64,000 nucleotides of DNA from Patescibacteria group bacterium (GTDB lineage Bacteria > Patescibacteriota > Patescibacteriia > UBA11705 > DATKZF01). The DNA lies in the NCBI GenBank assembly GCA_049319825.1, contig JBMORT010000008.1, positions 12,331 to 76,330 on the forward strand, written 5' to 3'. Of this stretch, positions 6,208 through 57,114 are shown piece by piece. The notes below the pieces were generated by a model. That model searched no databases. It was not told the DNA's origin and worked only from the letters and a program-made list of their open reading frames with translations. The position numbers were made by a program, and so were the translations under genes. The stretch's first letter is position 1; every line of letters starts with the position of its first letter.

Positions 6208-6948
6208 ATGCCAATTGAAAAAACACCCGGCGGAGAGCGCTGGGGCAGTCGGGATTTTTTCCGCGGCCGCGGCTTTGTCAAGGGCCAGGACAAGTTGGTT
6301 AATAATGAAACCGATCTGCTTAAAGTCGTGGAGACAAAAAAAACAGGCAAGGGGCTGGTCGCAAAAGCGCCGATTAAAGAGGGCGCGAGGATATTCGGTA
6401 TTCAGGGATCGGAAGAAGAGATTGTTCAAGAGCGTGAACGGAAGTTTTCTAAATCCAAAGCCGATCGTTCGCCCTTGTTGAATCTTTCAGGCAATCCGGA
6501 TTTATATTTGCCAAATTCAATCTGCGTCGGACAAAAAACAGCTCCGGACGGTCGCGTTATAAATACCATGCTTGATCCAGATGATGATAACCCGCTTCGG
6601 TTTATTAACCATTCCTGCGATCCCAACGCGAGGAGAATGGGCCCGTTCGCGATCGGCGCTTTTCGAGATATCGCGGTCGGAGAGCCGATCACCATTGACT
6701 ATTCGATTTTGGAGGTCAATCCGGAATGGCGGATGAAGTGCCTATGCGGCTCGCCCGATTGCCGCGGCGAGATTCGCAGCGTTCAATATTTGACGCCAAA
6801 GCAAATTGAGCCGTCATGGAAGGATTTGCCGGGTTTTATCAAGCGAATCTACATGCAATCGGCTGAAAAGCGGTTTTTAAGCCAAAAAGACAAAGAAGTA
6901 TTGAATAAATTGAAGGAGAATATGGAAAGCTTTGGCTTTGGCGATTGA
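6208..6948 (+). CDS. SET-domain protein (putative protein-lysine methyltransferase)
   Basis: RFINHSCDPNA (NHSCxPN), ITIDYS, and a C-terminal post-SET Cys cluster KCLCGSPDCRG. Confidence 0.65.
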   Translation: MPIEKTPGGERWGSRDFFRGRGFVKGQDKLVNNETDLLKVVETKKTGKGLVAKAPIKEGARIFGIQGSEEEIVQERERKFSKSKADRSPLLNLSGNPDLYLPNSICVGQKTAPDGRVINTMLDPDDDNPLRFINHSCDPNARRMGPFAIGAFRDIAVGEPITIDYSILEVNPEWRMKCLCGSPDCRGEIRSVQYLTPKQIEPSWKDLPGFIKRIYMQSAEKRFLSQKDKEVLNKLKENMESFGFGD

Positions 6949-9006: not shown

Positions 9007-9579
9007 ATGCAAATTCAGACATTATCGAGCAAATACGCTGCCGGCCGGCACTGGGACAACCATCCTAACATTTATGCCAAATATTTCGGAGATTTTTTAC
9101 GTCGAAATTTATTTAATGGTGAAATCGTCGATATCGGCTGCGGCTGCGGCCGAGATGTGGAAGCTCTGAATTCATTCGGCTATCAGACAATGGGAATTGA
9201 CAAATCACCGCAGGAAATCCGTTCGGCCAGAAACAAAAGGCCGCGATCGCTTTTCGCGGTAATGGACGCGGAGCGGCTGGCGTTTGCGGATGGGAGCATC
9301 GGCGCGTTTTATATGATTAATGTCATTCATTATGTTGACGCGGTAAAAGTCATTGCCGAAATGCATAGGACATTGAGATCGAGAGGGTTTTTGTTCATTC
9401 ATTTTAATCTATCGATCACCGATCAGAACGGCAATGTTGATTACCAGCTCTCCGAGCATGAAGTTTGGCGGCTGTTTCCAGCGTTTCGCGCCATGGGCCA
9501 AAAGTATTTTTCTCGATTCGACCCAATTCCTTTTCCACATCAGCACGACGTGCTGCAATTGATTTTCAAAAAGCTTTAA
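9007..9579 (+). CDS. class I SAM-dependent methyltransferase
   Basis: Motif I VDIGCGCGRDV and downstream motif II-like AVMDAERLAFADGS; GGAGGGGAG RBS. Confidence 0.7.
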   Translation: MQIQTLSSKYAAGRHWDNHPNIYAKYFGDFLRRNLFNGEIVDIGCGCGRDVEALNSFGYQTMGIDKSPQEIRSARNKRPRSLFAVMDAERLAFADGSIGAFYMINVIHYVDAVKVIAEMHRTLRSRGFLFIHFNLSITDQNGNVDYQLSEHEVWRLFPAFRAMGQKYFSRFDPIPFPHQHDVLQLIFKKL

Positions 9580-9678
9580 GGCGCCACCGCGTCTTTTTTT
9601 GATTTTTGGGAATAATTTGGTAAGATGAATTATCATGGATCACGTATCATGGATCATGTATCAATTTAATATTGTTAT

Positions 9679-9813
9679 GTTCCATGCTCCATGCTCCATG
9701 CTCCATGCTCCATGTTCCATGTTCCATGTTCCATGTTCCATGTTCCATGTTCCATGTTCCATGTTCCATGCTCCATGCTCCATGCTCCATGCTCCATGCT
9801 CCATGTTCCATGA
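9679..9813. repeat. perfect heptanucleotide tandem array (TCCATGC)4(TCCATGT)8(TCCATGC)5(TCCATGT)1 TCCATGA, 19 units, ending 10 nt before the mutS ATG
   Basis: Read directly; degenerate tcatggatca copies at 9640-9675 upstream of the array. Confidence 0.9.
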
Positions 9814-9823
9814 TTAATGACTT

Positions 9824-12379
9824 ATGCCCGAAACCCCAATGCTGAAACAATACAAAGAAATAAAAAAGAAGCACCAGGACGCAATCTTATTTTTTCGGCT
9901 GGGAGATTTTTATGAAATGTTCGGACCGGACGCCATTGAAGCCTCAAAAATTTTAAATATCACCTTGACTGCCAGAAATAAAGGCACGGAAAACGAAACT
10001 CCCATGTGCGGCGTGCCGTATCACGCGGTCGACGGCTACTTATCAAAGCTGACGCGGGCAGGTAAAAAAGTGGCTGTCTGCGAGCAGCTGTCAGATCCGA
10101 GCCTGCCCGGCATTGTGGAAAGAAAAGTAATCCGCACTGTCACTCCGGGCACGACTTTGGATGATAATATTTTGGACAATAAGGAAAATAATTATCTGGC
10201 TTCGCTGTCATTTTTAAAAAAGAGATGGGGCATGGCAGTGTGCGACCTGACTACCGGAGAATTCCAGGTCGGCGAATTCGAAGAGTTTGACATGCTGCAA
10301 AATGAAATTTTCAGGATCGCTCCGTCAGAAGTTCTGGTCACGCCGAGCCTTTTAAACAATTCGGATTTTCAAAATTTTTTTAGTAAATTAAAAAACGTCA
10401 ATTCGTTTCAGATCCCGAGCTTTGAGCAGCCGGCTGATTTTATTTTAAAGCATTTTAATCTGGCCGGCCTGGCCGGGTTTGGCATTGATCGGCTGGAGAT
10501 CGGCCAGACAGCGGCCGCGAATCTACTCGGATATTTGAAAGAAACACAGAAAACGGATTTGGAGCACATTACCAAAATGTCTTTGTACAATTCGCAAGAG
10601 TTTATGGCGCTCGATGAGGCGACGATCAGGAATCTGGAGCTTTACGGCACAGCGCAGGATTATCAGTACGAAGGCAGCTTGTTGTCGGTGATTGACCATA
10701 CTTCGACAGCCATGGGCGGCAGAAAGCTCAGGCGCTGGCTCAGGTATCCGCTGCTGAAAAAAGAGCCGATTGACCGGCGTTTGGAATCGGTGTCTGAGCT
10801 GGCTCGAGATATTGCCAGACAAGGTAAATTTATCGACACTTTGAAAAAAGTGGCTGACATGGAGCGCCTGCTCGGCCGCATCGGCTGCCAGCGCACGAAC
10901 GCGCGCGATTTGATCGCTTTGAAAAACTCTTTGCGCCAAGTGCCGAAGCTCAAGCAAATGCTGGCTGATTCCAAGGCTGAATTATTGCAAAAAATTTATG
11001 ATAATTTGGACGAGCAGATTGATTTGGTGCATTACCTTGAGCATGTGATCGAAGAAGAGCCGCCGGCGATCATCACTGAGGGCAACATGATAAAAAATGG
11101 ATTTAATAAAGAGCTTGATGAATTGCGCTCGATTTCCACCAATGCCAAAGACTGGATCAGCAAAATGCAGCAGCAGGAGATTAAAAGAACCGGAATCAAC
11201 ACCTTGAAAGTCAAATATAATAGAGTGTTCGGCTATTACATAGAAATCAGCAAGGCAAATTTAAATTCAGTGCCGGCTGATTACATTAGAAAGCAGACGC
11301 TGGTCAATGCCGAGCGCTTTATCACCCCGGAGCTTAAAGAATATGAAGAAAAAGTTTTGGGCGCTGAAGAAAAAATTAAAAAACTCGAGCAGGATTTATT
11401 TTTCGAAGCCAGGCAGGAGACGATCAAATATTTTCCTCAAATCCAAAATACGGCCGATCTGGTGGCTGAGCTCGACGCTTTGCTCGGGTTTGCCATATTG
11501 GCAGTTAAGGAAAATTATTCCAGGCCGGAAATTGTTCCGAAAAAAATTATTGAGATAAAAGACGGTCGGCATCCGGTGATTGAAAAATTTTCCGGCGAGT
11601 CTTTTGTGCCCAATGACGTTTATCTGGACCATGAGACGCATGAATTGATTCTGCTCACCGGCCCGAACATGAGCGGCAAGTCGAGTTACTTAAGACAGGT
11701 CGCGCTGATAGTTTTACTGGCGCAGATCGGCAGCTTCGTGCCTGCGGCTGAAGCGAAAATAGGTTTGGTTGACCGAATATTTACCAGAGTGGGCGCGGCT
11801 GATAATCTGATCCGCGGCCGGTCGACTTTTATGGTGGAAATGCAGGAAGCGGCCAATATTTTAAATAACGCGACGAAAAAAAGTTTGATAATACTCGACG
11901 AGCTCGGCAGAGGGACTTCAACTTATGATGGCGTGGGCATTGCCTGGGCAATAGTCGAATATATCCATAATAATATCGGCGCCTGCACATTGTTCGCCAC
12001 TCATTATCATGAGCTGATCGAAGTGATTGAAAATTTGAAGAAGGCGCAGAATTATTCAGTGGCGGTGACCGAAGACAATGGCAAAGTGGTTTTTTTGCGA
12101 AAAGTTTTAAAAGGCGGAGTCAATAAAAGCTATGGCATTGAAGTGGCCAAGCTGGCCGGCTTGCCGCCGGAAATCATTGACCGGGCCAATGAAGTTTTAA
12201 TCAAGCTGGAAAATGACAGGGAAGTGGACGTGGTGCGAAATTCCCAGCAGGCGGAAATGCTTTTTTTGCAAAAAGCCGAATCAGAGATTGAAAAAGACGT
12301 AAAAAATTTGGATTTGGATAATTTAACGCCTCTCGAGGCTTTGCAGCAATTGGTGGAATTTAAGAAAAAAATAAAATAA
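9824..12379 (+). CDS. mutS: DNA mismatch repair protein MutS
   Basis: N-terminal mismatch-binding domain (FFRLGDFYEMF), Walker A GPNMSGKS, DELGRGTS, 851 aa. Confidence 0.95.
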   Translation: MPETPMLKQYKEIKKKHQDAILFFRLGDFYEMFGPDAIEASKILNITLTARNKGTENETPMCGVPYHAVDGYLSKLTRAGKKVAVCEQLSDPSLPGIVERKVIRTVTPGTTLDDNILDNKENNYLASLSFLKKRWGMAVCDLTTGEFQVGEFEEFDMLQNEIFRIAPSEVLVTPSLLNNSDFQNFFSKLKNVNSFQIPSFEQPADFILKHFNLAGLAGFGIDRLEIGQTAAANLLGYLKETQKTDLEHITKMSLYNSQEFMALDEATIRNLELYGTAQDYQYEGSLLSVIDHTSTAMGGRKLRRWLRYPLLKKEPIDRRLESVSELARDIARQGKFIDTLKKVADMERLLGRIGCQRTNARDLIALKNSLRQVPKLKQMLADSKAELLQKIYDNLDEQIDLVHYLEHVIEEEPPAIITEGNMIKNGFNKELDELRSISTNAKDWISKMQQQEIKRTGINTLKVKYNRVFGYYIEISKANLNSVPADYIRKQTLVNAERFITPELKEYEEKVLGAEEKIKKLEQDLFFEARQETIKYFPQIQNTADLVAELDALLGFAILAVKENYSRPEIVPKKIIEIKDGRHPVIEKFSGESFVPNDVYLDHETHELILLTGPNMSGKSSYLRQVALIVLLAQIGSFVPAAEAKIGLVDRIFTRVGAADNLIRGRSTFMVEMQEAANILNNATKKSLIILDELGRGTSTYDGVGIAWAIVEYIHNNIGACTLFATHYHELIEVIENLKKAQNYSVAVTEDNGKVVFLRKVLKGGVNKSYGIEVAKLAGLPPEIIDRANEVLIKLENDREVDVVRNSQQAEMLFLQKAESEIEKDVKNLDLDNLTPLEALQQLVEFKKKIK

Positions 12380-12382
12380 GGG

Positions 12383-12493
12383 CAGGGCGCGGGGCGGGCA
12401 TACGCCCGCGTAGGGACAGAATATCTGTCCCTACCGCAGGCAGAGGTAAAGCCGAATTCGGATTCGGCTTTACCTCTGCCTGGCCGCGCCCTG
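12383..12493. repeat. GC-rich cloverleaf palindromic element, copy 1 (outer 10-bp stem plus three perfect hairpins of 6, 11 and 21 bp), followed by a T6 run
   Basis: cagggcgcgg...ccgcgccctg outer stem; hairpins gcgggc-atac-gcccgc, gtagggacaga-ata-tctgtccctac and caggcagaggtaaagccgaat-tcgg-attcggctttacctctgcctg. Confidence 0.85.
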
Positions 12494-12542
12494 TTTTTTG
12501 CGTAATTTAGGGGATTTTTTCGATTTCAAGATCCACCAGCCC

Positions 12543-16673: not shown

Positions 16674-16766
16674 TTTTTGTCATGGATCAAGGGGCATGAA
16701 TCATGAATCAGCTGAAATGATGTTATATGATATGTGCTCCATGATATATGATATGTGAAGAAAAAT

Positions 16767-23910: not shown

Positions 23911-23939
23911 TGACACATTGATTTTCGTTTGGTATCATA
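23911..23939 (+). promoter_or_regulatory. candidate promoter (TTGACA, 17 bp, TATCAT) followed by a ~140-nt leader upstream of rplJ (possible L10 autoregulatory leader)
   Basis: TTGACAcattgattttcgtttggTATCAT; the long leader contains GGCCTCGCCGGCTTAAAAAACGACCTTGCC. Confidence 0.3.
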
Positions 23940-24085
23940 TACTCACATACAAATACCGCAGACAGCAAGGGCCTCGCCGGCTTAAAAAACGACCTTGCCT
24001 AGGTAAAGCAAAATTTTGCTATTTTTCGCGGTATTTTCAATGCCGTTTTTTATTTAATTATTTTATTAAGATATCTATAATTTAT

Positions 24086-24613: not shown

Positions 24614-24740
24614 TCTACATTATTCAATATTAAATAGCTAGTGCGCCTAGCAAGACGAGAGCGACCAGTAAAACAAGTAATCCTTTTTTAGGACTTGTCG
24701 CGCTTGTCTGGCTTGTCTCGCTCGTCGCACTGATAAAAAT

Positions 24741-31987: not shown

Positions 31988-32100
31988 TTGTTTGGAAAAT
32001 AGAAAATAGTAATGGAAATTTGCAAATAGAAATTGGTTTTAAATACTATTTTCCACTTTCTATTTTCTAATACCAATTTCCAATTTCTAAACAACCAGTT
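31988..32100. repeat. ~110-bp AT-rich imperfect palindrome (tagaaattggttgtttggaaaatagaaaatag ... ctattttctaataccaatttccaatttctaaacaaccagtttcta)
   Basis: Inverted repeat read directly; lies between the Ldt gene and the tsaB fragment. Confidence 0.5.
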
Positions 32101-35538: not shown

Positions 35539-35771
35539 AGGAGTTATTATGGCAGGATTTATTGAATTCTGCTTTTTTATCCACAAAAATGGGGATAAGT
35601 CAGGCGGAAAGTTAAAAGTGAAAAGTGAAAAGTCAAAAGTTTTCAATGCACTTTTTATCCACAGAAATGATATTCACATAAAAAAAGCTTAAATATATGG
35701 CGTTTTTTTGTTTTTGCACTGGTGTTGAATAATGGTTGATAGGATAATATAAGTGGGGTATAATGGAGTTA

Positions 35772-35812
35772 GTGGAAATTTTTGTGGGGAAAAGTGGGGA
35801 AAATCTGGCGGG
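35772..35812 (+). promoter_or_regulatory. candidate MraZ operator: GTGG(G) direct repeats with 10-11-bp periodicity (aGTGGaaatttttGTGGGgaaaaGTGGGgaaaatcTGGCGGG)
   Basis: Four G-rich direct repeats ~215-255 bp upstream of mraZ; an additional AAAGTGA AAAGTGA AAAGTCA triple repeat at 35618-35645. Confidence 0.3.
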
Positions 35813-35968
35813 AAGTTAACTGAGCTATAATTAATTTCCCGCCAGGTTCACTTTATTTTTGTTACAAGATAGTACCCTTCGACTCCCCCTCGACTTGCTC
35901 GGGGTCGCTCAGTGCAGGCAAGATTGGAAATTGATTATTATTAAGTATTAAAGATGCTAGTTTCTTGT

Positions 35969-36027
35969 TCCATGCTCCATGCTCCATGCTCCATGCTCCA
36001 TGCTCCATGTTACATGATACATGACAT
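35969..36027. repeat. heptanucleotide array (TCCATGC)5 TCCATGT TACATGA TACATGA running directly into the mraZ start codon (catATG)
   Basis: Read directly; same unit as the mutS-upstream array. Confidence 0.85.
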
Positions 36028-36459
36028 ATGTTCATCGGTGAGTACCAACATAGTCTGGACCAAAAAGACCGACTGGCAGTGCCGGTTAAATTTCGTTCGA
36101 TATTGAAAGAAGGCGCTGTCGTTACCCGAGGCTTGGATAATTGTTTGTTCTTATACACTAAAAAGGAATGGAGTAAATTGGCGGAAAAATTATCGGCATT
36201 GCCCATAAGCAAATCAAATACCAGGGCGTTCAGCCGCTTTATGCTGTCCGGAGCGATGGATGTCGGCATTGATAAGCAGGGCAGAATTAAAATTCCGGAT
36301 TATTTGAAAAAATTTGCCGGCCTGAAAAAAAATGTAATCGTGGCCGGATTACTAAATCGTTTGGAGCTTTGGGATGAAATGGCCTGGAATAAATATAAGC
36401 AGGGGAATGAGAAAGCTTCGGCGCAGATCGCGGAAGAGCTGGAGAATCTTGACGTGTAA
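36028..36459 (+). CDS. mraZ: transcriptional regulator MraZ
   Basis: MFIGEYQHSLDQKDRLAVPVKFR... two DXXXR-type half-domains, 143 aa. Confidence 0.9.
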   Translation: MFIGEYQHSLDQKDRLAVPVKFRSILKEGAVVTRGLDNCLFLYTKKEWSKLAEKLSALPISKSNTRAFSRFMLSGAMDVGIDKQGRIKIPDYLKKFAGLKKNVIVAGLLNRLELWDEMAWNKYKQGNEKASAQIAEELENLDV

Positions 36460-36551
36460 ATCGATGCTAATATACGAATTGATACTAATGATACTAATAT
36501 TACAAAAGCATTCGTATAATTCGCATGCATTAGTATATTGGCATCGCTTGT

Positions 36552-37481
36552 ATGGCTATTCACAAACCAGTTTTGATAAAGGAGGTGATAGAGTCGCTTG
36601 ATCCGCAGCCGAATCAGAATTTTATTGATTGCACTTTGGGAGCCGGCGGGCATACGCGAGAGCTGCTGGAAAAAACCAGACCAAACGGAAAAGTGCTGGC
36701 CCTGGACTGGGATGAAAATGCCGTTATTGAGGCCAAACAAACCTTAAAGGAATATTTGCCGCGATTAACATTGATTAGAGATAACTATTCGAATTTGAAA
36801 AAAGTCGTTCAAGAAAATGATTTTGCTGATTTCAGCGGCGTGTTACTTGATCTGGGGTTATCCTCTGACCAGCTGAAATCTTCAGGCCGGGGATTCAGCT
36901 TTTTGACAGATGAGCCGCTGGATATGCGTTTTAGCTTGACGAACGGTTTAACCGCCGGTCAGATATTGAATAATTGGTCTGAGCCGGAACTGAAAAAAAT
37001 ATTAAAGGAATTCGGTGAAGAGGAAAAATTTCATAAAATAGTGGCTGAGATCGTCAAATATCGCCGAAATAGAAAATTCAAAACTACTCATCAGCTGGTG
37101 GATTTGATTGAACGAGTGAAAGGCTTGCCGAGAAAAGGGAAAATACACCCGGCGACCAAGGTTTTTCAAGCTTTGCGCATTGCCGTCAATAACGAGCTGG
37201 AAAATATAAAAAGCACATTGGCGCAGGCGGCTGGATTGATGCCAGTCGGATCTAAAATCGCGGTCATCAGTTTTCATTCGCTCGAAGATCGGATTATCAA
37301 GCAATTTTTTCAACGAGAGAGCAAAGATTGCGTTTGTCCGTCGGAAATTCCGGAATGCCGCTGCGGACATCGGGCAATATTAAAAATTATAACAAAAAAA
37401 CCGGTTATCGCATCTGCTGCGGAAGTGAAGGAGAATCCACGCGCAAGGTCGGCGAAGCTTAGAGTGGCGGAACGGATTTAA
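36552..37481 (+). CDS. rsmH: 16S rRNA (cytosine1402-N4)-methyltransferase RsmH (MraW)
   Basis: HKPVLIKEVIESL...DCTLGAGGHTRELL...GLSSDQL. Confidence 0.9.
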   Translation: MAIHKPVLIKEVIESLDPQPNQNFIDCTLGAGGHTRELLEKTRPNGKVLALDWDENAVIEAKQTLKEYLPRLTLIRDNYSNLKKVVQENDFADFSGVLLDLGLSSDQLKSSGRGFSFLTDEPLDMRFSLTNGLTAGQILNNWSEPELKKILKEFGEEEKFHKIVAEIVKYRRNRKFKTTHQLVDLIERVKGLPRKGKIHPATKVFQALRIAVNNELENIKSTLAQAAGLMPVGSKIAVISFHSLEDRIIKQFFQRESKDCVCPSEIPECRCGHRAILKIITKKPVIASAAEVKENPRARSAKLRVAERI

Positions 37482-37565
37482 GTGAATTTCCAGGCGAAAA
37501 CACCAAAAACAAAAATAAAATTGATACATGTTTCATGATCCATGATCCGTGTTACATGACCAAAT

Positions 37566-37937
37566 ATGTCTCCCTTTTTAAAATTTTCAAAATTTTCTCG
37601 GGTGAAATCAATCCAGTCGCCTAAAATTACCAGAGAAATAAAGCCTTTCAAATTTAAAAATTTTCTATTTATAAAAATTTTATTGATATTGCTATTGGTT
37701 GGCTCGGTGTTTCTTTACTTGATGCAGATTAACAGCCTGGCCACCAAGGGATTTAAGATTCAGGAGCTTGAAGGCCGGATTGGTGTGTTGCAGGACGGCA
37801 ATAAAAAGATGAGCATGGAAGCGGTCAAGCTCAGGTCAATGGCCGAACTAAATGAAAAAATTCAGAATTTAGACATGGTGCCAATAACCGAATTTTCATA
37901 TATCGAAGCGACTTCAACAGGCGTCGCCAAGCGATAA
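37566..37937 (+). CDS. ftsL: FtsL/DivIC-like cell-division protein (single TM plus coiled coil)
   Basis: 123 aa, TM ILLILLLVGSVFLYLM followed by a coiled coil; canonical position after rsmH; preceded by a CATG-heptad element. Confidence 0.45.
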   Translation: MSPFLKFSKFSRVKSIQSPKITREIKPFKFKNFLFIKILLILLLVGSVFLYLMQINSLATKGFKIQELEGRIGVLQDGNKKMSMEAVKLRSMAELNEKIQNLDMVPITEFSYIEATSTGVAKR

Positions 37938-37969
37938 TGGTTCTTTTAACAGCTGGACGTAAAAAAGCC

Positions 37970-38515
37970 TCATCCGTTGGATGGGCTTTTTTGCATTCTT
38001 TTTTTGCGATTGATCCGACCGACGAACCATGATCCCCGTGGATCGATCAGGTGAACAAACATGAAGACGAATTCTTTCATTCTTTCAATCCAGCTCATTT
38101 GGTGTCTGACCGTTTTGATTTTAACTCTTATGCCGTAGCTTAAAAAAGTGATCCACAGCCTGATCGCGTGCTGCCAATCTGTTAGCACTGTGATTCTGGC
38201 GTCAGTCAGTCCGCATTGTTTGAGCAAATCGATCGAGTATTTAACATTCTGGTACGTGTCTAGCGATTCTTTTTCCGCGATAACGCGATCGCCGGGCACG
38301 TGGTGAGAGTCAAACCAGCGCCGCATCAATTCCGCAGCCGGAGTTTGTTGAATATCAGGCGGCAGAAAAACGCCGCCGCAGGTGAGAATACAGAAATACT
38401 CACGAGTATGCCACATCATTTTGGCGCGTTGACAGCGATTGAGAGTGTCTTTTGCCGCCAGCTGATCAACCGGCTTGATTCCGCCTGCGGGCACCAACAG
38501 AATTTCGCGTCTCAT
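37970..38515 (-). CDS. DUF218 (YdcF/ElyC-like) domain protein
   Basis: LLVPAGG...ILTCGG...ESLDTYQN pattern of the DUF218 family. Confidence 0.6.
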   Translation of the reverse strand: MRREILLVPAGGIKPVDQLAAKDTLNRCQRAKMMWHTREYFCILTCGGVFLPPDIQQTPAAELMRRWFDSHHVPGDRVIAEKESLDTYQNVKYSIDLLKQCGLTDARITVLTDWQHAIRLWITFLSYGIRVKIKTVRHQMSWIERMKEFVFMFVHLIDPRGSWFVGRINRKKRMQKSPSNG

Positions 38516-38873
38516 GGCCTCCTCCTCATCCAGACGGTATTTTATCTTATTAAAAAAATATTAAAATGTCAATTATTAACAGTTAGTTTTGGTAAATGAT
38601 ATATTTGTGGTAGAATTAATACAACATGGAGCAATGTTATGAGGCAGTAGGCAAGAGGCGGCCTGCCTGACCAGTAGTACGTTACTATGGACTATTGCCC
38701 CTTTAACGACGCTCAAGTCAGGCTTCTGCTTATTGCCTTGCGTATCTCGCGTCTCGCCCATCGCCTTTCTTATACCAATCAACAATTAACCTCGTAACGT
38801 CGTAACCTCATAACCTCATAACCTCTTAATTTTTTTTCCAGCTAACGACATATTTAAAATAAAATTTATCTTT

Positions 38874-39560: not shown

Positions 39561-39717
39561 ATTTGTTAAAACCGGCGCAAATTATTGTGCCGGTTTTTAT
39601 ATTTTGTGTTATAATAGAAACGTCATGGATCATGGAGCGATTCTAATGTGTTTGTAAATTAGAAATATTTGTAATTATTCGTAATAAAAATAAATAATAT
39701 TCGTAATTTGCTATTTT

Positions 39718-40536
39718 ATGCCCAAACAAACAGACAAAAAAACAAAATGCCTCTTGCCGTGTTACATTATGCTGATAACAGCGATAATAACGGTCGCCAC
39801 AGTGATCGCCTGTGTCGGCTACATGTGGTATTTTTCATTGATTGGCTCGCCGATCCAGCGGCTGGCGGAGAATCAGACAATGCTGCAAAATCAAGTTCAG
39901 AAGTTGGCTCCCGAGGCGACAGGGGAAGCGGTTAGCTCTGTTGGAAGCGAAACAAGAATTTTATTAAAGCCAATTCAAGGAGTATTTCAGTACAATCCGA
40001 CATATGAGGCGAACCTAAAAGCATCGGAGATGGAATGTGAATTGACTAAGCCTGTGGCGGCTGACAAAGTTAAAACATATTTCAGCCAACGCACAGGAAG
40101 TTCATTTGACATACCATATAATGCTGATTGGGTGAATTCAAAATATTCGCTGGATCCCTATGATGTGGTTGCTCCTTACGATCCTAATAAAAGAGGAGTG
40201 CTGGGTCAAGTCAACTTCGGTCCATTAGTCAGTTCGGAAAATTGCGCATGGAGAAGACAGTATGTATTGCAATTCTTGGATAGCATGTCAGCCGAAGATA
40301 GTGTGAAGGACATTGATTATTCATCGATAACGAAAATCACGATTAAAACCGAGCAGGGAGAATTAAAAGCGCTTAAAGTATTAGCAGAAGGTATGTGCGG
40401 GGATATTCCGATGTTGATTGTCTTGGGCCCCGAGTACAATTATGAATTTTCCGGTGATTGTTTTACTGGTACTTCCAATGATTTTACAGTTTTTGAATCG
40501 ATTATGCAGACATTTCGCTTCACTCATGGTTTATAA
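39718..40536 (+). CDS. N-terminally membrane-anchored hypothetical surface protein (paralog B)
   Basis: MPKQTDKKTKCLLPCYIMLITAIITVATVIACVGYMWYFSLIGSPIQ...; preceded by a GTAAT-repeat element. Confidence 0.45.
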   Translation: MPKQTDKKTKCLLPCYIMLITAIITVATVIACVGYMWYFSLIGSPIQRLAENQTMLQNQVQKLAPEATGEAVSSVGSETRILLKPIQGVFQYNPTYEANLKASEMECELTKPVAADKVKTYFSQRTGSSFDIPYNADWVNSKYSLDPYDVVAPYDPNKRGVLGQVNFGPLVSSENCAWRRQYVLQFLDSMSAEDSVKDIDYSSITKITIKTEQGELKALKVLAEGMCGDIPMLIVLGPEYNYEFSGDCFTGTSNDFTVFESIMQTFRFTHGL

Positions 40537-41344: not shown

Positions 41345-42277
41345 ATGAATCACAAAATAATTTTAGGAATTGCCGGGGGAATAGTGATTGCCGCGCTGGG
41401 GTTTGGAGTTTATTTGGCTGTCACCAATTTTTCGATTATTAAAAATATTGACTTGGGTCAAGACGCGGATGAGGGAAAAATCGAAAATTTCGACGAGTGC
41501 GCGGCCGCGGGCAATCCGGTGATGGAAAGCTATCCGCGCCAGTGCCGCACGGCCGACGGCCGGCTTTTTGTGGAAGAGATTGACGAGGATGAGTGGGAAT
41601 TTGATTCTGAGTGGGGAGTCGATTACGAGGTCCGTGGCTGCGATGAGGAAAAGCTTCGCGATCCGCTGGCGCAAGAAAAAAAAGACAGAATAGCCGACAT
41701 GACCATTGACGGCAATTATGTAAATTTCACGCATTATTTGAATTATGTTTGCTGCGCTGATATTGAAGTGGAAATAATGGATACAGTCGTCGAAGATGAT
41801 AAAACGACAATTAAATTGCTTGAATCAAATACCGGTGAAATGTGCCGCTGCGTCTGCGATTATGAAGTCGACATCACTCTCGGCTATCTTGATCCCTTCA
41901 AATATACAGTTGAAATGTACGGCGTCGAATTCGAAGGCGAACAAGAGCCGCAGCTTCTCTGGTCAAGAGATTTTCAAATCATTGAATCAGAAGAAGACGG
42001 AGCCGGCATCGGCCTGGCGAATCCGGCTTCAGCGTATTGCCAGGATTGGGGCGGCACTGTGGATATTCGGCATTTTATCGACGGGGATAAGGGATTCTGC
42101 CTGTTTGAGGACGGTTCTGAATGCGAAGAATGGGCATTTTATCGTGATGAATGCTGGGACGGAGAGGTTTTTTGCAAAGATTTATGCGGTGACGGCCAGT
42201 GCCGGGAAATAGTCTGTGAAGCGGTCGGGTGTCCGTGCTCGGAGACAGCCGAATCGTGCCCTGCAGATTGCCAATAA
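41345..42277 (+). CDS. membrane-anchored acidic Cys-rich protein with a DUF333-like (putative hemolysin) C-terminal domain
   Basis: TM ILGIAGGIVIAALGFGVYLAV; ANPASAYCQDWGGTVDI...GFCLFEDGSECEEWAFYRDEC matches the NPAS-YC / C-F-DGS-C-EW-F-R-C pattern of DUF333; 23 Cys. Confidence 0.5.
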   Translation: MNHKIILGIAGGIVIAALGFGVYLAVTNFSIIKNIDLGQDADEGKIENFDECAAAGNPVMESYPRQCRTADGRLFVEEIDEDEWEFDSEWGVDYEVRGCDEEKLRDPLAQEKKDRIADMTIDGNYVNFTHYLNYVCCADIEVEIMDTVVEDDKTTIKLLESNTGEMCRCVCDYEVDITLGYLDPFKYTVEMYGVEFEGEQEPQLLWSRDFQIIESEEDGAGIGLANPASAYCQDWGGTVDIRHFIDGDKGFCLFEDGSECEEWAFYRDECWDGEVFCKDLCGDGQCREIVCEAVGCPCSETAESCPADCQ

Positions 42278-42622
42278 CGTAAAATAACGCAAAATAACGC
42301 CAAAATAACGCAACATAACGCCAAAATAACGCAATATAACGCAACATAACGCCAAAATAACGCAATATAACGCAACATAACGCCAATATAACGCAACATA
42401 ACGCAAAATAACGCAATATAACGCAACATAACGCAAAATAACGCCAAAATAACGCAATATAACGCCAAAATAACGCAATATAACGCAACATAACGCCAAA
42501 ATAACGCAATATAACGCAACATAACGCCAATATAACGCAAAATAACGCAATATAACGCAACATAACGCAAAATAACGCCAAAATAACGCAATATAACGCC
42601 AACATAACGCATATAACGCCCG
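42278..42622. repeat. degenerate minisatellite, ~33 units of 10/11 bp (AAAATAACGCA / AAAATAACGCCA / ATATAACGCAAC), starting at the stop codon of the preceding gene
   Basis: Read directly; mean period ~10.5 bp. Confidence 0.9.
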
Positions 42623-42642
42623 GGTAAAACCGGGTTTTGTTT
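42619..42642 (+). terminator. rho-independent terminator (cccgg-gtaaaac-ccggg + ttttgtttc) at the end of the minisatellite
   Basis: Read directly. Confidence 0.4.
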
Positions 42643-42644
42643 CT

Positions 42645-42763
42645 GGCCGATTCACGGCCGGCGCACGCGCCGGCCGCAGAGACGCGCCGCGGCGCGTCTC
42701 TGCACCGGACATGGTAAAACCGAATTCGAATTCGGTTTTACCATGTCCGGCCATGAATCGGCC
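42645..42763. repeat. GC-rich cloverleaf palindromic element, copy 3 (diverged sequence, same architecture: outer stem ggccgattca/tgaatcggcc plus three perfect hairpins, the last a 24-bp palindrome with two GAATTC sites)
   Basis: cggccggcgc-ac-gcgccggccg; cagagacgcgccgcggcgcgtctctg; ccggacatggtaaaaccgaattcgaattcggttttaccatgtccgg; shares the ggtaaaRccgaattcg core with copies 1 and 2. Confidence 0.8.
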
Positions 42764-42842: not shown

Positions 42843-44393
42843 ATGGGGATTTGGCGAAATCTTTTTTTATTTACACGGAGAATTGTCGGTTATTTTCCAT
42901 TGAAAATTATGCCGAATTTTAAAAGCGTACGCAGTTGGATAATAATTGTTTTAATCGCCGGCGCTTTCATCGTGCCTGGGGTTTTTGCGCAAGAAAACGG
43001 ACTGATTCCATTGCCGGCCGACTCAGCGCATCCTGCGACCGAAACCGTGGCAGCGGAAAATGCTTCTGACCATTCTTCCGAAGCCGAGGAAGGACATGGC
43101 GCCGCGGCCGCGCAAACCTTCATGTGGATCGCCATTATTTTAGTCGCGGCCAAGCTGTCCAGCCTGGTCGAGCGATTCGGCCAGCCATCGGTATTGGGCG
43201 AATTGGTGATTGGCGTTGTTTTGGGTAATTTGGTTCTATTGGGTATTAATTTTTTCGAGCCGTTGAAAATGAATGAAACCATAACTTTCTTGGCGGAATT
43301 GGGTGTGGTTATTTTATTATTCCAAATCGGGCTTGAGTCCAACATCAAGGAGATGAAAAGAGTGGGAGTCAAAGCTTTTATTGTCGCCTGCGTTGGCGTG
43401 GTTGCTCCTTTTGTGCTGGGAACATACGTGGTGGGACCGATGCTTTTACCCGGTTTGTCCAGTAACGCCTATTTGTTTTTAGGCGCCGCTTTAACCGCCA
43501 CTTCGGTCGGCATCACCGCGAGAGTTTTTCAGGATTTGGGCAAATTAAAAATTCCGGAAGCGCAAATTATTTTAGGCGCGGCAGTTATTGACGACGTTCT
43601 GGGTTTGATTATCCTGGCCGTCGTCTCCGCCATCGTCACCATCGGCGCCGTGAGTATCGGTGCGATCAGCATTATTGTCGCCAAGGCGATTCTGTTTTTG
43701 GTCGGCGCCATAGTGGTCGGTCAATTGATCGCCAAATGGCTGGGCCGGGCTTTTGCCAAGATTCAGACTGGCGTGGGTATGAAATTTACCTTAGCCATCT
43801 GTTTTGGCCTGCTTTTTGCCTTTTTGGCGCAAAAAATCGGCTTGGCGCCGATTGTCGGCGCGTTCGCGGCCGGTCTGGTGCTCGATCCCGTTCATTTTAA
43901 ATATTTTAAAGATCCGAAAGTGGTTAGTGACATGAAAAAAGCGGTTGAAGGCGCGCCGATTGAAATTCAGGAGAAAGTCGAAGAAGCCATCGAGCCGCAC
44001 GCGCACCGGCATATTGAGGATTTGGTGGCGCCGGTAGGCATGTTTTTAATACCGATATTTTTTGTCATGACGGGCATGGGAGTAAAGCTGGAAACTCTAT
44101 TTAACGTAAAAATATTGCTGGTGGCGCTCGGCATCACCGTTGTCGCTTTTATCGGCAAATACATTACCGGATTTGTCGCCGGAAAGGGAGTGAATAAATC
44201 TATTATCGGATTTGGCATGGTGCCGCGCGGAGAGGTCGGTCTGATTTTCGCGTCAATCGGCAAAGCCTTGGGAGTGGTGTCTGATTCTGTCTATTCGGTA
44301 ATCGTTATAATGGTAATATTAACAACACTGCTGACGCCGCCAATTTTGACTGTTTTATTGAAAAGACATGATCAAAAAGTAAAAATCGCTTGA
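42843..44393 (+). CDS. monovalent cation:proton antiporter (CPA2/Kef-type) with an N-terminal signal/extension
   Basis: ~12 TM segments; ELGVVILLFQIGLES and GAALTATSVGITARVF motifs typical of Na+/H+-K+/H+ exchangers. Confidence 0.7.
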   Translation: MGIWRNLFLFTRRIVGYFPLKIMPNFKSVRSWIIIVLIAGAFIVPGVFAQENGLIPLPADSAHPATETVAAENASDHSSEAEEGHGAAAAQTFMWIAIILVAAKLSSLVERFGQPSVLGELVIGVVLGNLVLLGINFFEPLKMNETITFLAELGVVILLFQIGLESNIKEMKRVGVKAFIVACVGVVAPFVLGTYVVGPMLLPGLSSNAYLFLGAALTATSVGITARVFQDLGKLKIPEAQIILGAAVIDDVLGLIILAVVSAIVTIGAVSIGAISIIVAKAILFLVGAIVVGQLIAKWLGRAFAKIQTGVGMKFTLAICFGLLFAFLAQKIGLAPIVGAFAAGLVLDPVHFKYFKDPKVVSDMKKAVEGAPIEIQEKVEEAIEPHAHRHIEDLVAPVGMFLIPIFFVMTGMGVKLETLFNVKILLVALGITVVAFIGKYITGFVAGKGVNKSIIGFGMVPRGEVGLIFASIGKALGVVSDSVYSVIVIMVILTTLLTPPILTVLLKRHDQKVKIA

Positions 44394-44522: not shown

Positions 44523-44720
44523 ATGCTCGGTAATAAGGAAAAGCAAAAAATCGCGTGCGTTAGTTGCGTGTTTTTTTCTTTCCTGGCCATTGTGTTTATT
44601 TTATATCAGCTGTTTTGGCCGCAAGTTGTCTGCTGGGGATTCGCTATTTTTTTCAGAGAGTATTGGGAGTGGCTCAAGCGGAAAAACAATAAATTTTTTT
44701 TGACTTCACAAGTCAAATGA
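44523..44720 (+). CDS. small membrane protein (65 aa)
   Basis: Strong SD GGGGGATGAG upstream; two hydrophobic segments; followed by a terminator. Confidence 0.35.
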   Translation: MLGNKEKQKIACVSCVFFSFLAIVFILYQLFWPQVVCWGFAIFFREYWEWLKRKNNKFFLTSQVK

Positions 44721-44756: not shown

Positions 44757-44983
44757 TGCGAAAGGTGAGAGGCGATAGGCAGAGGAGAGAGATTGGATAA
44801 TGCTGCAGCGCCCTGCCCTCGTTGTTATTTCGACCGACCCTGAGCGAGTGAGGTTTAAACGAACGAGTCGAAGGGGAGTGGAGAAATCTCCCATTTCGTT
44901 TTTTCATTTTATCCTCCGCAGCCTTTTAATTCGTGCCTCAAAATGATACAATTTCTTTATTGCTCATTGACAAGGAGGCAGAC

Positions 44984-56253: not shown

Positions 56254-56355
56254 CAATTTAATATTTTGTTAATAAATAATTAAAATAACAGCGGATTATG
56301 GAGATGGGATGGAATAAATGTTCCATGTTTCATGTTCCATGATTCATGACCAAAT

Positions 56356-57114
56356 ATGACAGCAATTATCCCGATTCTAGTCATCGTCCTGTTCATTATT
56401 TTGATCAGCTTGCGCCAGATCAATCAGTATGAGCGCGGCGTCAAATTCACCATGGGAAAATACGTGGGTATGAAAAATCCTGGCTGGAGAATCGTTCTTC
56501 CGATTTTCCAGAGCATGAAAAAGGTGGATCTGCGCATCAAAGCTGTTGACGTTCCTGAACAAAAGGCCATCACCAAAGACAATGTGTCAGTCGGCGTCAA
56601 TGCCGTGATTTATTGGAATGTATCTTCTGCGGAAAAAGCAATCCTCGAAGTCGAAAACTTTTTCTGGGCCGTTTCTCAATTAGCTCAGACTACCATGAGA
56701 AATGTCGTCGGTGAAGTCACCTTGGACGAGCTTTTAAGCTCGCGCGAAATGATTTCACAGCGAATCAAAGACATTGTTGACAAAGCCACCGATGCTTGGG
56801 GAATCAAGGTCGACAACGTCGAATTAAAAGACATAGTTTTGCCCGGCGACATGGAAAGAACTATTGCCAAGCAAGCAGAGGCGGAAAGAGAAAGAAGAGC
56901 GGTCATTATCAATGCCGAAGGCGAGCGCATTGCCGCCGAAAATATCGCCAAAGCCGCTCAGACTTTGAGCACGGCTCCGGGCGCATTGCATCTGAGAACT
57001 TTGCAGACCATAAACGACGTGTCTTCCGATCAGTCGAATACGATAGTATTCGTGGCGCCGCTTGAGGTATTGCGCGCGTTTGAAGGTTTCGCAAAAAAGG
57101 CGGAGCAAAAGTAA
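56356..57114 (+). CDS. SPFH/band-7 (stomatin/HflK/C-like) membrane protein
   Basis: N-terminal TM plus RTLQTINDV... SPFH core with Ala/Glu-rich coiled coil AKQAEAERERRAVIINAEGE; preceded by CATG-heptad element ...catgaccaaatATG. Confidence 0.8.
   Translation: MTAIIPILVIVLFIILISLRQINQYERGVKFTMGKYVGMKNPGWRIVLPIFQSMKKVDLRIKAVDVPEQKAITKDNVSVGVNAVIYWNVSSAEKAILEVENFFWAVSQLAQTTMRNVVGEVTLDELLSSREMISQRIKDIVDKATDAWGIKVDNVELKDIVLPGDMERTIAKQAEAERERRAVIINAEGERIAAENIAKAAQTLSTAPGALHLRTLQTINDVSSDQSNTIVFVAPLEVLRAFEGFAKKAEQK

Follow-up and report, generated by a model that had tools for sequence, protein, structure and literature searches.

The 64,000-nt stretch of Patescibacteria contig JBMORT010000008.1 considered here, called the window throughout and the frame of all array positions below, carries tandem 7-nt repeats built around CATG that run up to the start codons of several genes. 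We give an even chance to the reading that these CATG heptads are lineage-specific, slippage-driven heptanucleotide repeats of transcribed leaders, in which they act as modular arms and spacers of stem-loops. The arrays grow and shrink fast, with 19, 4, 4 and 0 copies before mutS in the window and its relatives, and the CATG unit appears at new loci within one species.

An initial annotation of this DNA had noted CATG arrays of 7-bp period at the starts of five genes, namely mutS, rpsM, mraZ, an ftsL-like open reading frame (ORF) and an SPFH gene, and all five were found in place, although the one at rpsM is far more degenerate than the other four. Pfam confirms MutS, S13, MraZ, RsmH and Band_7 as the identities of the genes concerned and returns no match for the ftsL-like ORF. 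The distance from one CATG to the next is 7 in 33 cases in the window, against 0-4 cases for each neighbouring distance (258 CATG in total), and CATGN3CATGN3CATG is matched 26 times, against 0.00 in 100 dinucleotide shuffles; the chance expectation by which the initial annotation had proposed to judge the motif is thus exceeded. Every CATG cluster is non-coding and lies 5' of a + strand gene, including a sixth site, TCATGGATCATGGA at 39623-39636, that had not been listed. The arrays terminate 0-11 nt short of the ATG, and units of the opposite orientation, of the type that forms 5' arms, occur too. The units seen are YTCCATG, TTTCATG and TCATGGA, the copy number per site ranges from 2 to 19, and the dispersal amounts to six sites in 64 kb, with a few more in 170 kb of relatives.

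Using Tandem Repeats Finder (TRF), period 7 was detected at 9677-9812 (19.4 copies of ATGTTCC/ATGCTCC at 96% identity, 11 nt short of the mutS ATG at 9824), at 35969-36009 (TCCATGC, 5.9 copies at 100% identity, after which degenerate units reach the mraZ ATG at 36028) and at 56318-56349, an array with four CATG units at 56324-56348 before the SPFH ATG at 56356. At both mutS, where the last ATG of the degenerate units is the start codon, and mraZ, array and start codon are in register; these two arrays share the unit CTCCATG, the last unit having CATG changed to TATG at the start codon. The array before the ftsL-like ORF (TRF 37522-37559) reads CATGTTT CATGATC CATGATC CGTGTTA CATGACC at 37527-37561, followed by the ATG at 37566, and is confirmed by an independent assembly, a Logan contig from SRR32167788 that equals window 36469-38701 with 0 mismatches. 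The ending said to be identical at the ftsL-like and SPFH sites proved shorter than quoted, with only the 14-nt CATGACCAAATATG shared, because the ftsL-like site has CCGTGTTA where the SPFH site has CCATGATT. At rpsM (16681-16766), three in-register CATG units at 16681-16705 are accompanied by one further CATG and several TATG units.

The arrays most likely sit in transcribed leaders or intercistronic spacers. Two of them lie within operons and have no promoter of their own (rpmJ-rpsM and rsmH-ftsL-like), and others begin right after -10 boxes. A stop-to-stop ORF test is useless for calling the arrays coding or non-coding, since they contain no stop codons; in-frame stops do precede the starts of the array genes. 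When the upstream AUGs of ten leaders were sorted by frame and stop, no consistent upstream ORF or termination-reinitiation design was found: several of the ten have an in-frame TGA that precedes the start by one or two codons, the other two frames enter the gene, and relatives differ. A search of the whole window with Rfam 15 at gathering score gave only the L10 leader, with no match at any heptad site, the rpmJ-rpsM spacer included. In a phase-variable on/off simple sequence repeat (SSR) locus the repeat would be located within an ORF or between -35 and -10; the arrays are outside ORFs and lie 3' of putative -10 boxes or inside operons.

For comparison we used loci at 65-87% protein identity recovered by protein searches, namely L081-L084, L085 and L086 for mutS and rpsM, L207-L211 for mraZ and L212-L214 for SPFH. 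By its RsmH the window falls within Patescibacteria, and the RsmH of the best genome representatives is only 57% identical to that of the window; the protein searches found RsmH and the SPFH protein 100% identical in one 77-kb NCBI Patescibacteria metagenome-assembled genome (MAG) contig, and contig P0001, with a 100% identical MutS, begins inside mutS. Exact-sequence look-ups of the window MraZ and L36 matched no record, and neither the window nor the fetched relative loci contain an rRNA gene.

The mutS leader, with 19 units in the window, has 4 in the species of L081 and 4 in L086, and L085 has none, carrying GGATTTA x3 instead. The rpmJ-rpsM spacer is of CATG type in the window, L085 and L086 and has GTAGATY/RATCTAC in L081. 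In the orthologous mraZ leaders of L207, L210 and L211 the CATG array is absent; L207 has GCAAAA/TTTTGC there and L210 and L211 have ATTCGTAAT-type units, L210 keeping only ATTCATGATATATG. Before the ftsL-like ORF, four CATG heptads stand in the same place in L211, a vestige with a GC-rich insert in L210 and none in L207. The SPFH leaders of relatives have no CATG array, but a GCAAGAC/GTCTCGC hairpin in L213 and short A-rich spacers in L212 and L214, so that the mraZ and SPFH arrays occur in the window species only. CATG-type heptads also stand at other genes in relatives (L081 914 and 4652, L086 7908, L210 11447). Conservation in related genomes is therefore divided, the mutS and rpsM arrays being kept in three of four lineages and the mraZ and SPFH arrays being absent from the relatives. 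The proposed regulon of cell-division, ribosomal and repair genes is not supported as a fixed set, because the array-bearing genes differ among relatives, and other heptads stand at mutS, rpsM and SPFH in these loci. The earlier interpretation is thus supported in part: motif, position and absence of Shine-Dalgarno (SD) sequences stand, whereas SD replacement and a conserved regulon are not supported.

Identity at the fourfold-degenerate positions of mutS is 0.37-0.47 when the window is compared with relatives, against 0.30 at random, which is near saturation. About 45 nt of the mutS leader are nevertheless almost identical between the window and L086, and the rpsM leader shows 79% column identity among the window, L085 and L086. 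As these leaders still align, the alignments clearly indicate that both are conserved well beyond neutral expectation and under constraint. The mutS -10 region, TTTGRTAAKAT, is likewise conserved in L081, L085 and L086.

The architecture of these leaders is that of two arms. Units of the 5'-arm type, TCATGGA/ATCAYGK, directly follow -10 boxes at mutS (also in L081 and L086), at 39623 and at L210 11447, and 3'-arm units, YTCCATG, adjoin the start codon. At mutS, rpsM and SPFH both types pair into a long imperfect stem-loop that leaves 10-13 A/U-rich nt and the AUG unpaired; more widely, RNA folds give hairpins with 8-13 nt unpaired before the AUG at mutS, rpsM, SPFH, rplL and others. The mutS 5' arm begins 5 nt past the -10 box, about where the transcript is expected to start, is also present in L081 (~4 units) and L086 (7 units), and pairs in the RNA fold with the first CCAUGYU units (z -2.8, 5' part of the leader). 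The rpsM spacer folds into one 76-nt imperfect hairpin (-30.1 kcal/mol, z -1.75 to -2.6) with the 5' arm UCAUGGA UCAAGGG GCAUGAA UCAUGAA and the 3' arm AUAUGAU AUGUGCUCCAUGAUAUAUGAUAUG, followed by unpaired UGAAGAAAAAU-AUG, and the SPFH leader fold reaches -22.2 kcal/mol (z -1.2 to -2.0). The rpmJ-rpsM spacer retains one hairpin across four relatives despite differing units (z -1.75, -3.1, -1.5 and -1.8). The mraZ-rsmH spacer forms one hairpin in all four relatives from unrelated units, TACGAAT/ATTCGTA, CTACAGAT/ATCTGTAG, GCGAAT/ATTCGC and AACAGAT/ATCTGTT (z -2.2, -5.6, -3.6 and -3.4); this hairpin being kept with unrelated repeat units argues for selection on structure.

Period 7 is not peculiar to CATG. 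By one fixed criterion, 819 kb of diverse RsmH loci (Candidate Phyla Radiation (CPR), Chloroflexota and others) contain 35 arrays of period 7, against 0-7 for each of the other periods between 4 and 14; the window and close relatives together (234 kb) contain 15, against 0-4 for others except period 10, whose count stems from the single 42273-42619 array. An excess of heptameric SSRs in bacteria at large has been reported (PMC4692102, citing Mrazek 2007). Within the family, no other clear type of array is as common as the CATG-type heptads, and the window spacers are rich in other degenerate 7-8 nt repeats (Table 1). Several non-CATG spacers also show inverted arms: in the rplJ-rplL spacer (24647-24740) GCAAGACGAGAGCGAC pairs with GTCGCGCTTGTCTGGCTTGTCTCGC (z -2.85), in the spacer 31995-32090 GAAAATA pairs with TATTTTC, and further such spacers lie at 1157-1340 and 38640-38830. 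Separately, L028, a Patescibacteria MAG, carries at 6378-6481 an array of about 15 GGAGGTC/GGATGTC heptads inside the RsmH-matching stretch; it is possibly an in-frame repeat insertion in the coding region, the stretch being ~100 nt longer than that of the window.

An arm-loop-arm-start layout with CATGAAA/TTTCATG units occurs in unrelated low-GC metagenome contigs as well, before genes that look like L17, TrmD and HU by N-terminal translation. Bare CATG(N3CATG)3 was discarded as a lineage marker, as a metagenome scan gave more than 120 matches with many unrelated units (including GGGCATG, GTTCATG and ACCCATG) and G+C contents; only the low-GC YTYCATG subset is informative.

The heptads had been thought to replace an SD sequence. 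None of the five array genes has an SD, as claimed, but this is typical of about 80% of window genes and so does not distinguish them. A strong SD, defined as AGGAG, GGAGG, AAGGA or GAGGT at the right distance, precedes only about 11 of the 68 genes of the window (~16%), internal starts such as 25418 and 44984 being counted; the classical sites cited beforehand are real at 2619, 9007, 25418 and 44984, and that at 44523 is weak (GGGGGA). Among SD-less ATG genes without arrays, T occupies position -1 in 26 of 34, and positions -2 to -8 are 70-90% A/T; the SD-less genes with an A/T-rich stretch ahead of the ATG include rpsK, rpsD, rplQ, rplM, rpsI and rplL. The five array genes share a TATG context, and the array units instead read CC-ATG. 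Because the SD-less majority has the same TATG-type, A/T-rich context, the heptads are not SD stand-ins that set the array genes apart. This context also matters for gene calling, since callers sometimes take array AUGs in relatives, where calls are longer at the N terminus than in the window (SPFH 257-261 aa; rpsM 136 aa in L085, the extra 21 nt starting from an in-frame AUG within the heptad spacer).

We would picture the system as follows. The arrays would be transcribed and act in the RNA as building blocks, both arms and spacers, of stem-loops in leaders or between cistrons, which could serve in protection of 5' ends or of intercistronic mRNA, in processing, or in keeping the start region accessible. 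Array length, easily mutated by slippage, would tune rather than switch expression of the downstream gene. The start codon itself would be picked by the genome-wide A/U-rich context with U at -1 and not by the heptads, whose own AUGs would stand in a CC-AUG context that is disfavoured. At mraZ and mutS, the long perfect arrays would then be recent slippage expansions of 3'-arm units, perhaps with little function of their own.

Several observations weigh against this picture. The putative promoters and transcript starts are assigned by consensus, and that of mutS falls below the threshold of the consensus scan (8/12 matches). A hairpin role does not cover all five sites, because the array at mraZ lacks a partner arm and the one at the ftsL-like ORF has hardly any structure: the former folds worse than its shuffles (z +1.3) and is essentially unstructured, the latter is nearly so (z -0.2 to -0.8), and the z-scores of the CATG hairpins in general are modest (-1.2 to -2.8). 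Four samples of one species, L081-L084, have identical 4-copy mutS arrays with no copy-number polymorphism. Confinement to non-coding DNA, finally, is equally expected for a functionless 7-nt repeat under purifying selection against frameshifts.

This last point belongs to a neutral account, which we consider somewhat unlikely, in which the heptads are functionless products of replication slippage, homogenised within the genome by slippage and ectopic conversion and tolerated only where DNA is non-coding, since any 7-nt unit added to a gene would cause a frameshift. It predicts the quick turnover at orthologous sites, where units are gained, lost or replaced by others, and it accommodates the perfect species-specific arrays at mraZ and SPFH, the period-7 excess across diverse genomes, as reported for bacteria (PMC4692102), and the lack of a consistent upstream ORF design; it leaves unexplained why the leaders of mutS and rpsM, together with their heptads, stay conserved when synonymous sites approach saturation, why four relatives retain hairpin potential with different sequences, and why the units are regularly placed with respect to -10 boxes and start codons. 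The initial annotation had favoured a dedicated RNA-binding protein or ribosome feature that reads the CATG heptads for SD-independent initiation of a regulon. We find this unlikely: although six sites in 64 kb carry the unit, every one facing a start, and although it reaches the start codons of mutS and mraZ in register, ends identically for 14 nt at two unrelated genes, is the commonest clear array type in the family and has a parallel in a proposal made for the TAACTGA repeats of Beggiatoaceae (PMC4679880), relatives do not share the gene set, arrays are missing from most SD-less genes (nearly all ribosomal protein genes of the window among these), copy number runs from 2 to 19, units face both ways, no candidate factor was identified, and many window genes carry heptads of other sequence. 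A bolder version, in our opinion quite improbable, would have a dedicated trans-acting factor read the heptads, with array length determining translation or stability in a gene set that is peculiar to the species and quickly rewired, and in its strongest form would couple mismatch repair to repeat instability through the 19-copy mutS array; if it were true, low MutS would give more slippage and hence changed mutS expression, a tunable mutator switch in a CPR bacterium of reduced genome.

A signal in the DNA rather than the RNA is very unlikely in our judgement. CATG is a palindrome and a common target of methyltransferases, so that CATG, with the GATC of 5' arms, might mark sites of methylation or transcription-factor binding, or the inverted arms might extrude as cruciforms. 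The position of 5'-arm units immediately 3' of -10 boxes, where an operator would block RNA polymerase, would suit such a role, and heptad repeats are described as operators of the Vibrio cholerae ctxAB promoter in a preprint (bioRxiv 10.1101/2021.05.14.444153). Two arrays, however, lie inside operons far from promoter-like sites (rpmJ-rpsM and rsmH-ftsL-like), a 7-bp spacing puts successive sites on different faces of the helix, and CATG outside the arrays is neither enriched in the window nor avoided there in the manner of a restriction system (258 observed, arrays included, against 238 expected); no DNA methyltransferase turned up in the window, though none was searched for. In E. coli and Mollicutes, direct repeats that stand in a run ahead of mraZ are bound by the MraZ protein. 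Since the mraZ array lies between a promoter and mraZ, it could be thought an MraZ operator and the others the marks of an MraZ regulon, a proposal with next to no likelihood. Canonical GTGGGG boxes are already present at 35736-35815, a region with 80% column identity in four relatives, and stand 150-270 nt upstream; the CATG array has period 7 and not 10, contains no GTGGG and is missing from all three orthologous mraZ leaders.

Table 1. Positions of heptad arrays, associated promoter-like elements and other short repeat units in the window
Feature	Position	Strand	Basis
Putative mutS promoter, TTGATT-16 nt-TGgTAAGAT (extended -10)	9599..9626	+	read from sequence
mutS leader 5' arm, ATCATGG ATCACGT ATCATGG ATCATGT ATCAATT	9632..9666	+	
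mutS CATG array, 19 YTCCATG units and degenerate ATTAATG ACTTATG	9677..9826	+	
rpmJ-rpsM intercistronic hairpin of degenerate CATG heptads	16678..16753	+	RNA fold
mraZ promoter, TTGATA-17 nt-TATAAT, with MraZ-type GTGGGG boxes at ~10-nt spacing	35736..35815	+	
mraZ CATG array, TCCATGC x6, then TCCATGT TACATGA TACATGA CATATG	35969..36030	+	
Array before ftsL-like ORF, four CATG and one CGTG, ending CATGACCAAATATG	37522..37568	+	
TGtTATAAT -10 box, 7 nt, TCATGGA TCATGGA	39610..39636	+	
SPFH leader hairpin, GGAUUAUGGAGAUGGGAUGGAA pairing with UUCCAUGUUUCAUGUUCCAUGAUUC, then unpaired AUGACCAAAU-AUG	56293..56358	+	
CTTTCGC repeat	1157		
AACAATC repeat	1313, 27538, 38775		
CTTGTCG repeat	before rplL		
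TAGGCAG repeat	34151, 38640, 44775		
AAAGTGA repeat	35608		
TAACCTCA repeat	38787		
ATTCGTAAT repeat	1300, 39666, 40637		

The extended -10 of mutS lies at 9619-9626, and a terminator-like hairpin at 9578-9595 precedes the promoter. The units at 39623 are of the 5'-arm type at a probable transcript start, 80 nt before the ORF at 39718, and L210 11437-11480 repeats the layout found from 39610 onwards, with TGGTATAAT followed by TCATGTG TCACGTA TCATGTA TCATGGA (units from 11447).

In the mraZ control region, the promoter scores 11/12 in the consensus scan, and the GTGGGG boxes occupy 35761-35815 (TRF GTGGGGAAAA x2), one of them overlapping the -10. Downstream of these boxes, 35736-35860 contains a hairpin, CUGGCGGGAA...UUCCCGCCAG then GUUCACUU, with a compensatory change in its stem in L210 (CCGGCGG/CCGCCGG), which may be an attenuator or a small RNA. 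About 100-190 nt upstream of the promoter, the DnaA-box sequence TTATCCACA occurs exactly at 35577 and 35655 and the inverted TTATCCCCA at 35590, flanking the AAAGTGA heptad array (x4.7); similar pairs stand upstream of mraZ in L207, L210 and L211. The segment 35577-35663 is probably not an origin, because GC skew and gene orientation do not switch there. The division cluster is split, window mraZ-rsmH-ftsL-like (36028-38515) being followed by a convergent DUF218 gene, with no ftsI or mur genes, and in L212-L214 a penicillin-binding protein transpeptidase and a Mur ligase adjoin the SPFH locus.

Elsewhere in the window, a 347-bp array at 42273-42619 consists of ~34 copies of the 10-nt unit AATAACGCAA, shows higher-order periods of 31 and 134 as well and lies between an ORF ending at 42277 and one starting at 42843. 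GC-rich nested palindromes follow it at 42640-42760. Similar very stable palindromes lie in A/T-rich spacers at 12380-12497, 35875-35920 and 44800-44890, and in relatives at L081 12557-12660 (after mutS) and L210 10970-11010 (inserted in the ftsL-like leader); the one after window mutS forms three hairpins (-96 kcal/mol, z -11). They look like a dispersed element of the repetitive extragenic palindrome (REP) or miniature inverted-repeat transposable element (MITE) kind. The Rfam L10_leader lies at 23938-24061 (58.6 bits, gathering score 44), and TTG 23918, the start of the rplJ frame in the ORF list, is for that reason probably not the true start.

With regard to known systems, the E. coli REP/bacterial interspersed mosaic element (BIME) extragenic palindromes and the 5' stabiliser stem-loop of the ompA leader offer one likeness: imperfect hairpins in intercistronic spacers and at 5' transcript ends whose structure is kept while the sequence drifts. 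REPs, however, are one dispersed family mobilised by REP-associated tyrosine transposases (RAYT), whereas here the repeat unit changes from spacer to spacer and tandem heptads make up the arms. The TAACTGA repeats of marine Beggiatoaceae (also some Cyanobacteria and Bacteroidetes) are closer, being tandem 7-nt units that are almost all intergenic, oriented toward the start codon, ending within a few nt of it and found in ribosomal protein operons, with SD rare in the repeat spacers and a genome of generally low SD use. They come in sets of 2-6 or more copies, 169 sets genome-wide (MacGregor 2015, PMC4679880), and show no functional pattern among downstream genes and no accepted function (PMC4679880). 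They differ in carrying stop codons, whereas YTCCATG has a palindromic core with AUG; the CATG arrays, moreover, often pair with an inverted arm into hairpins, reach 19 copies at one site, belong to CPR and number six sites in 64 kb against 169 sets genome-wide. The short tandemly repeated repetitive (STRR) sequences and Nostoc heptamers of Cyanobacteria resemble the CATG heptads in that one genome has several different heptamer units, which lie between genes close to a promoter or start codon, at times in inverted pairs, with lengths that vary between related strains, and a regulatory role is suspected there, though unproven (PMC4692102; bioRxiv 10.1101/2022.06.06.494920). Unlike the CATG units, many of those in Cyanobacteria and Xanthomonas are rich in G and have the potential to form G-quadruplexes.

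Strict membership of the TAACTGA or STRR1-3 families was rejected, the unit not being TAACTGA, CCCCAGT, TTGGTCA or CAACAGT; since unit sequences differ, the CATG heptads are of the same kind but not of the same family. Our literature searches found no description of such repeats in CPR/Patescibacteria. For decades, heptamers close to start codons have been recorded from Cyanobacteria, Beggiatoaceae and Xanthomonas with no accepted function, and the habit now extends to CPR, where spacers favour period 7 over all other tandem periods and where some arrays are constrained as arms of leader hairpins and others turn over within species. If expression is tuned by array length, organisms that possess very few regulators would have in these leaders a simple means of control that can readily evolve. 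The CATG heptads belong with the start-proximal STRR/TAACTGA class, from which they differ in unit, in phylum and in the frequent two-arm hairpin layout.

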